Of a stretch of DNA of 64,000 nucleotides, positions 59,559 to 60,396 are shown piece after piece (position 1 is the stretch's first letter; every line of letters begins with the position of its first letter). Made by a program: the position numbers and the translations under genes. Source of the stretch: Escherichia coli (GTDB lineage Bacteria > Pseudomonadota > Gammaproteobacteria > Enterobacterales > Enterobacteriaceae). Below the pieces are notes generated by a model, which did not search any database, had not been told where the DNA came from, and was given only the letters and a program-made list of their open reading frames with translations. The DNA lies in NCBI RefSeq assembly GCF_051903065.1, contig NZ_CP178438.1; one strand, 5' to 3'.

Positions 59559-60101
59559 CTAAGCCGCGAGAATATGCTGAATCGCCAAAAACATAGGTAC
59601 AGCACCAAAAGCATTTGGTGTCGCTGAAAGCTGAACAAAGCCGAGACGAGCATAAAAGTTAATGGCGGCAGGGTCAGCATCAAGATAAACCCCTTTAATT
59701 GGTAATGCCTGGTGAATTATTTTTACATGTTCAAAAAAATCACATAGTAGGTCCTGACCAAAGCCCCGCTTTTGATACTTCCGCGCCACCCCCAACATGA
59801 CTAATCTGACAACACCAATCTCTGAAGGCTGTGAACCCTGAAGGACGCCAGAAACGCGTTGTTTTTCCAGCGAATATGCCGTAAAAGTACAGATGCCAAT
59901 CAGTTCACCACTTTGTCTGTCAATAAGTGCTTTAGCCGCACAGTCGCTATTACGCACACTTTTCTTTAGCGATGTGCGTACAAATTTATCGATAACAGGG
60001 TTACCGCAATCAAACTGTTTTTGCCCAGGATAAGTAATATCAGACTGATAATTACAGGAGAGGACTATGGGCAGAGTAATCTCTTCATGCTTGTCGACCA
60101 T
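59559..60101 (-). CDS. GNAT-family acetyltransferase, candidate toxin of a type II GNAT/RHH toxin-antitoxin pair (TacT/AtaT/ItaT/KacT-like)
   Basis: 180 aa; acetyl-CoA-binding motif VARKYQKRGFGQDLL; C-terminal FYARLGF; start overlaps the upstream DUF1778-like ORF by 17 nt. Confidence 0.7.
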   Translation of the reverse strand: MVDKHEEITLPIVLSCNYQSDITYPGQKQFDCGNPVIDKFVRTSLKKSVRNSDCAAKALIDRQSGELIGICTFTAYSLEKQRVSGVLQGSQPSEIGVVRLVMLGVARKYQKRGFGQDLLCDFFEHVKIIHQALPIKGVYLDADPAAINFYARLGFVQLSATPNAFGAVPMFLAIQHILAA

Positions 60102-60396
60102 CGCTGTTTTTCCTTTTCATTAACGCCTTGAGTGCGAGCGTCGGTTGAGCAGGTTCGGCGATGAGTTGGTTCATCAGTTCCCAGCTTTGATTCGAAAGCT
60201 CACGGCGACGTTGGTTATCAAGCACGCTTTCGGCGCGTTCCATAGCAGCGCTCAAAATAAAGGCGCTTAAATCTAACCCAACGGCTTGCGCAGCTTCACG
60301 AAGTCTGTTTTTGGCGTCGGGACTGGTTTTGAGTTCAACCCGCGCATTTTTCAGCGTTTTATCGACATCGGGTAGAGTGGCTGTTTTTCCAGGCAT
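60085..60396 (-). CDS. RHH-type (DUF1778-like) antitoxin partner of the GNAT toxin
   Basis: Start taken at ATG 60396 (MPGKTATLP), preceded by SD aagagg; ~103 aa; VELKTSPDAKNRLREAAQAVGLDLSAFILSAAMERAESVL fits a ribbon-helix-helix. Confidence 0.65.
   Translation of the reverse strand: MPGKTATLPDVDKTLKNARVELKTSPDAKNRLREAAQAVGLDLSAFILSAAMERAESVLDNQRRRELSNQSWELMNQLIAEPAQPTLALKALMKRKNSDGRQA

Follow-up and report, generated by a model that had tools for sequence, protein, structure and literature searches.

A GNAT/DUF1778 toxin-antitoxin pair on a strain-variable island between yajR and cyoE of Escherichia coli closely matches itaRT of strain HS and carries a candidate operator

Background

TacT/TacA of Salmonella is the founding member of the GNAT/DUF1778 toxin-antitoxin systems, and the Pfam antitoxin family PF08681 is named after TacA. 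PDB entry 5FVJ is cited as TacT (PMC6125619). KacT/KacA of Klebsiella pneumoniae (PDB 5XUN and 5ZGN) likewise pairs a GNAT toxin with an upstream ribbon-helix-helix (RHH) antitoxin of the DUF1778 type, and KacT served as the search model in solving the structure of ItaT of E. coli HS (PMC7367177). AtaT/AtaR has the same fold, operon layout and chemistry, N-alpha acetylation of aminoacyl-tRNA, as ItaRT. PDB entries 6AJM and 6GTS, which we take to be AtaT/AtaR of E. coli O157:H7, are acetyltransferase depositions that include a DUF1778 partner, and they are among the closest solved relatives of ItaT. AtaT prefers initiator Met-tRNA in vitro; in vivo its range is broad, with a bias towards Gly, and it falls into a different phylogenetic clade from ItaT, A as against B (PMC9177977). 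The in vivo target of TacT is Gly-tRNA whereas that of ItaT is Ile-tRNA, and peptidyl-tRNA hydrolase (Pth) detoxifies the product of both (PMC9177977). TacT also acetylates its own antitoxin, whereas ItaT leaves ItaR unacetylated (PMC6125619).

Publications from 2018–2022 already describe the itaRT module along with its target, structure and regulation, and both genes are annotated in RefSeq. When itaT of strain HS is expressed alone in E. coli MG1655, growth is arrested, an effect relieved by co-expression of itaR; the first process affected is protein synthesis, and the Y150A substitution abolishes toxicity (PMC6125619, Wilcox et al. 2018). The two proteins purify together in what appear to be stoichiometric amounts, and a 172-bp upstream promoter fragment is repressed by the ItaR-ItaT complex but not by ItaR alone, independently of acetyltransferase activity (PMC6125619). 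The acetylation substrate identified there is Ile-tRNAIle (PMC6125619); Val-tRNA and Met-tRNA, which are acetylated less well than Ile-tRNAIle, were added by a structural study (PMC7367177, Zhang et al. 2020). The same study solved the ItaT dimer and found that G115, Y150 and a hydrophobic pocket formed by V36, I37, F40 and M102 are required for toxicity or activity (PMC7367177). In vivo the range of the toxin is broad, with Ile-tRNA(GAU) as the primary target; ItaT induces ribosome pausing at AUU and AUC codons, and its action is counteracted by Pth (PMC9177977, 2022). The pausing and the effect of Pth together place the block at elongation (PMC9177977).

Identification of the gene pair

The window analysed here is a 64,000-nucleotide stretch of E. 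coli DNA. Near one end it contains two overlapping genes on the minus strand, as an initial annotation made from the letters alone had noted. The upstream gene (60085..60396, minus strand) encodes a 103-aa protein beginning MPGKTAT, and the downstream gene (59559..60101, minus strand) encodes a 180-aa protein with the N-terminus MVDKHEE. The stop region of the first and the start of the second share 17 nt (60085..60101), implying translational coupling. A Shine-Dalgarno-like AGAGGT (60401..60406, minus strand) ends 4 nt before the ATG of the upstream gene at 60396. Called mechanically, the reading frame of this gene extends to a TTG at 60462, but the 103-aa form is the one adopted in RefSeq and in the literature.

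Profile searches place both products in the expected families. First, the small protein, which had been proposed to be an RHH protein of the DUF1778 type, matches PF08681 (TacA1/DUF1778) at 2.8e-17, so that the proposal survives the one Pfam outcome, no DUF1778 match, that had been named as counting against it. Its matches in the PDB are KacA (E 3.5e-11, aligned by residues 14–96) and AtaR (8.4e-09). Second, the 180-aa protein matches the GNAT families PF13508 (1.6e-07), PF13673 (1.2e-06) and PF00583 (1.9e-05). The two motifs that had been read from its translation are both present: R-x-x-x-x-R-G-F-G occurs as R107-K-Y-Q-K-R112-G113-F114-G115, within which the canonical acetyl-CoA motif Q/R-x-x-G-x-G/A corresponds to Q110, G113 and G115, and the C-terminal FYARLGF spans residues 149–155 and includes Tyr150. 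A GNAT toxin of ~160–180 aa with a DUF1778 antitoxin gene directly upstream in one operon is the arrangement of TacAT-type systems, and it is the arrangement found here. A module of this kind can thus be recognised from raw sequence alone.

Other model collections are less specific. NCBIfam gives no specific model above its curated cut-off, and weak generic matches only, for the two proteins or for the product of the adjacent Sel1-like gene; RefSeq labels the acetyltransferase only as a GNAT family N-acetyltransferase. PADLOC has no defence-protein model matching either protein at E <= 0.01, and no defence role is therefore claimed for the pair. At gathering thresholds, Rfam detects no RNA family anywhere in the window, and with it no sign of an RNA antitoxin or a riboswitch.

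Correspondence to ItaR and ItaT of strain HS

Several lines of evidence connect the pair to itaRT. First, in a sequence search of the PDB the top match of the GNAT protein is 7BYY_A (E 1.6e-117, 178 of 180 residues identical). The entry is the HS toxin with an engineered substitution, ItaT(G115D), which was introduced so that an inactive protein could be crystallised (PMC7367177), and one of the two differences from the window protein is that engineered residue. Second, against the copy in the HS genome the toxin is identical at 179/180 positions, the sole difference being A43T (T43 in the window, A43 in HS), and the antitoxin at 101/103, the differences being K31R and V41L (R31 and L41 in the window). 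Third, gene order, the 17-nt overlap, protein lengths, the slot between yajR and cyoE and a Sel1-like neighbour are all common to the two loci; in HS, as in the window, yajR is followed by a TPR/Sel1 gene, the GNAT gene, the DUF1778 gene and finally cyoE, and the genes are oriented alike in both. Fourth, the calculated masses of 19.83 kDa for the GNAT protein and 11.40 kDa for the small protein agree with the 19.8 and 11.4 kDa published for ItaT and ItaR (PMC6125619). Near-identity to the HS proteins and the PDB entry, the common slot and the matching masses together indicate that the pair is the itaRT module itself, and we regard it as almost certain from these comparisons that the locus is a chromosomal itaRT operon, a type II toxin-antitoxin module.

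At the DNA level the island that holds these genes aligns with HS from end to end with ~55 substitutions, and the coding and upstream segment 59559–60540 differs from HS at ~18 nucleotides, two of which (60482 and 60504) lie in the promoter region, outside the promoter hexamers and the palindrome cores described below.

The assignment upholds most of the initial annotation and overturns one suggestion. That the two genes have the type II architecture of the GNAT/RHH systems acetylating aminoacyl-tRNA is borne out by their near-identity to ItaT/ItaR of HS. The annotation had gone on to suggest a separate member of the family, one differing in its tRNA specificity; by sequence the pair is instead the already characterised E. 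coli ItaR/ItaT, one of four named families, and not a new member. Its observation that the N-terminus is unlike that of AtaT holds, the two toxins being only weakly similar (E 2e-06), and is explained by the pair not being an orthologue of AtaT, KacT or TacT. Orthology to any of these three was considered and rejected, since the PDB sequence search gives only E 2e-06 to 6e-04 over ~130 residues: besides AtaT, KacT is distant (E ~3e-06 to 1e-05) and TacT is a very weak match (E ~6e-04). The relation to these toxins, judged by the same alignments, is paralogous within the superfamily.

By analogy with the HS allele, the window ItaT would be a dimeric GNAT enzyme that acetylates mainly Ile-tRNAIle, with Val- and Met-tRNA as further substrates. 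Aminoacyl-tRNAs blocked in this way would be unusable in elongation, and ribosomes would be expected to stall at Ile codons and growth to stop. The RHH/DUF1778 protein ItaR would bind ItaT tightly and neutralise it, and the promoter would presumably be repressed by the ItaR-ItaT complex rather than by ItaR alone.

Allele differences and alternative readings

The three amino acid changes relative to HS are all conservative. T43 is confined to a minor lineage of itaRT alleles, and is derived, since HS and two more divergent alleles carry A43. As the only difference from HS ItaT, and a derived one, T43 raises the prospect of a functionally shifted toxin: the substitution falls on the helix that carries the pocket residues V36, I37 and F40, at a distance of three residues from F40, and might alter aminoacyl-tRNA preference. 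We consider this very unlikely, however. The exchange of Ala for Thr is conservative, the catalytic and pocket residues of HS ItaT (V36, I37, F40 and M102 among them) are all unchanged in the window translation, and the mutagenesis in PMC7367177, where 'A43' does not occur, does not implicate residue 43. A broader version of the idea, in which a T43 allele of shifted preference is accompanied by a co-inherited, secreted Sel1-repeat protein tied to the pair as a three-gene module, is an improbable reading to which we give little credence.

The pair could also be a decayed, inactive remnant kept by linkage, with a GNAT protein that is non-toxic or an antitoxin that fails to neutralise it. Parts of the surrounding island do decay, the neighbouring Sel1-like gene being a pseudogene in some strains, and one strain has lost the island altogether. 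Yet both reading frames are full length with every tested functional residue, the toxin is 99% and the antitoxin 98% identical to its counterpart in an experimentally active pair, the predicted promoter, Shine-Dalgarno sequence and palindromes are conserved, and both genes are annotated as intact CDSs in all 40 of 40 carriers sampled across the spread of genomes, which makes decay extremely unlikely. A further reading dispenses with a toxin-antitoxin pair altogether and takes the larger protein for a conventional acetyltransferase, whether metabolic or acting on proteins or antibiotics, beside an unrelated small regulator. This would fit the moderate generic GNAT scores, the missing NCBIfam assignment and the generic RefSeq label, but it is practically dismissed by the closest solved relatives, which are of the GNAT/DUF1778 family (KacT, 6AJM/6GTS and TacT-type entries), and by the published experiments on the HS allele that already refute it there, a near-identical protein having been shown biochemically to acetylate aminoacyl-tRNA and to be neutralised by this antitoxin.

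Promoter and candidate operator

The itaRT reading is accompanied by a plausible regulatory region. The best promoter-like site in the region is a predicted sigma-70 promoter on the minus strand (60473..60501), with the –35 hexamer TTGACA (60501–60496), a 17-nt spacer and the –10 hexamer TAAATT (60478–60473), together 10/12 matches. Both hexamers are invariant in the four alleles compared, those of the window, HS, FDAARGOS_1268 and Z0117EC0005, the last two of which are ~3.4% diverged in DNA.

Two copies of the palindrome ATACGG-N7-CCGTAT bracket this promoter. The distal copy (60505..60523) abuts the –35 hexamer, with extended arms that span 60501–60527, and its core is kept in HS, FDAARGOS_1268 and Z0117EC0005. 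The proximal copy (60450..60468) begins 5 nt downstream of the –10 hexamer and is conserved in three of the alleles, with a single arm change in FDAARGOS_1268. Their centres are 55 bp apart, or about five helical turns. The motif has just these two matches in the 64 kb of the window, even with one mismatch allowed, against 0.06 expected from shuffled sequences. The predicted promoter and both palindromes fall inside the upstream fragment that is repressible by ItaRT in HS (fragment as in PMC6125619).

Because the motif is rare, flanks the promoter, lies within the repressible fragment and is conserved across diverged alleles, it is plausible that the two palindromes are the ItaRT operator, the distal copy being candidate site 1 and the proximal copy candidate site 2. 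Repression would then act through these two sites on either side of the –35 and –10 hexamers. In the main text of PMC6125619 the terms 'palindrom', 'operator' and 'inverted repeat' do not appear, and the literature searched yielded no other paper on DNA binding by ItaR. That the palindromes constitute a so far undescribed ItaRT operator appears more likely than the combination of a shifted specificity and a three-gene module, and it is a much smaller novelty. A candidate operator for the known ItaRT autorepression is one modest addition to what is described for this system, and is cheap to test.

The island between yajR and cyoE

The toxin-antitoxin genes lie on a strain-variable island of ~2.3 kb (58172..60537, borders set by alignment to K-12). 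Homology to K-12 MG1655 runs to 58171, on the side of the yajR start, and resumes at 60538, next to the cyoE terminator, so the insertion beside the cyo operon that had been described at the outset is confirmed; the window has 2,366 bp where K-12 has a spacer of 95 bp. The cyo-side edge is marked by the intrinsic terminator of cyoE (60542..60565, minus strand), a 10-pair stem followed by a T run that is common to K-12. At 42.6% against 50.2% for the window, the GC content of the island is low, which is consistent with horizontal acquisition. The island holds three genes only, a Sel1-repeat reading frame, itaT and itaR, together with the promoter. Searches at its borders found no direct repeats, no integrase or transposase genes and no tRNA target.

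The third gene (58568..59503, plus strand, RefSeq start) is convergent with itaT and encodes a 311-aa Sel1-repeat protein (PF08238, best 4.2e-07). It always accompanies itaRT on the ~2.3 kb island. It is intact in HS, BL21 and 33F4, and in two other strains it is a pseudogene with a frameshift or an internal stop while itaRT is intact. The N-terminus of the protein resembles a signal peptide (MLTKRILFSLMLIVSPGVVASE), and its C-terminal half of ~150 aa has no Pfam match. Upstream of this gene, at the yajR-proximal end of the island, the GC content drops sharply to 31–34% (58100–58700). The trough holds several promoter-like and terminator-like matches, and the Sel1-like gene is probably regulated from it.

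Distribution among E. coli genomes

A megablast comparison of the toxin-antitoxin region with 5,426 complete E. coli genomes shows that itaRT is a presence/absence polymorphism. The region is found in 1,367–1,369 of these genomes (~25%), on the chromosome with one exception, and a K-12-type spacer occupies the site in ~4,050. Identity to the window is ~98% for most copies and reaches 99% or more in only 26. Among the carriers is the expression host BL21: BL21 Star(DE3) has the island (locus L007, 1531–3359) with an intact Sel1-like gene, the GNAT toxin and an ItaR whose accession is that of the HS protein. The polymorphism is therefore relevant to work on GNAT-toxin expression or tRNA acetylation in strains that carry the island.

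One genome documents loss. The O157:H7 strain TR01 (locus L006, 2403–2607) corresponds to the window minus exactly 58232–60503, a segment of 2,272 bp that comprises the Sel1 gene, itaT, itaR and the promoter. The only feature of the junction is a 2-nt GA microhomology, and the distal palindrome is left behind as a scar. A clean deletion of this kind from the island-bearing allele is rare, and that of TR01 appears nearly unique among the 5,426 genomes; it demonstrates that loss of the toxin-antitoxin module is possible. An O157-type scar as a common third allele at this site was considered and rejected: only TR01 matched it over the full length at high identity, and other O157:H7 strains carry the K-12-type spacer.

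Other variable segments in the window

Three further segments of the window differ between strains. First, ~1.6 kb between malZ and acpH (32581–34170) is absent from E. coli HS; its 461-aa reading frame (32768–34153, plus strand) has no Pfam match even at E <= 10 and is annotated by RefSeq in 33F4 as a hypothetical protein. Second, ~2 kb between pgpA and yajO (46798–48780) is likewise absent from HS, and the 523-aa reading frame within it (46979–48550, minus strand) corresponds to the protein that RefSeq annotates in 33F4 as the type III secretion system (T3SS) effector pentapeptide-repeat protein EspY3. Third, the interval between ppnP and rdgC (13851–17383) is variable: 33F4 carries one 2,280-bp DUF2773 gene along with an SF0329-family gene, and in HS a remnant is all that is present. 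In the window, three consecutive reading frames (13851–15032, 15260–15763 and 15765–16931) are followed by one of 151 aa at 16928–17383, and ~770 bp of it (15011–15778) are unaligned with 33F4. This arrangement suggests that the window carries a disrupted or rearranged copy of the region.
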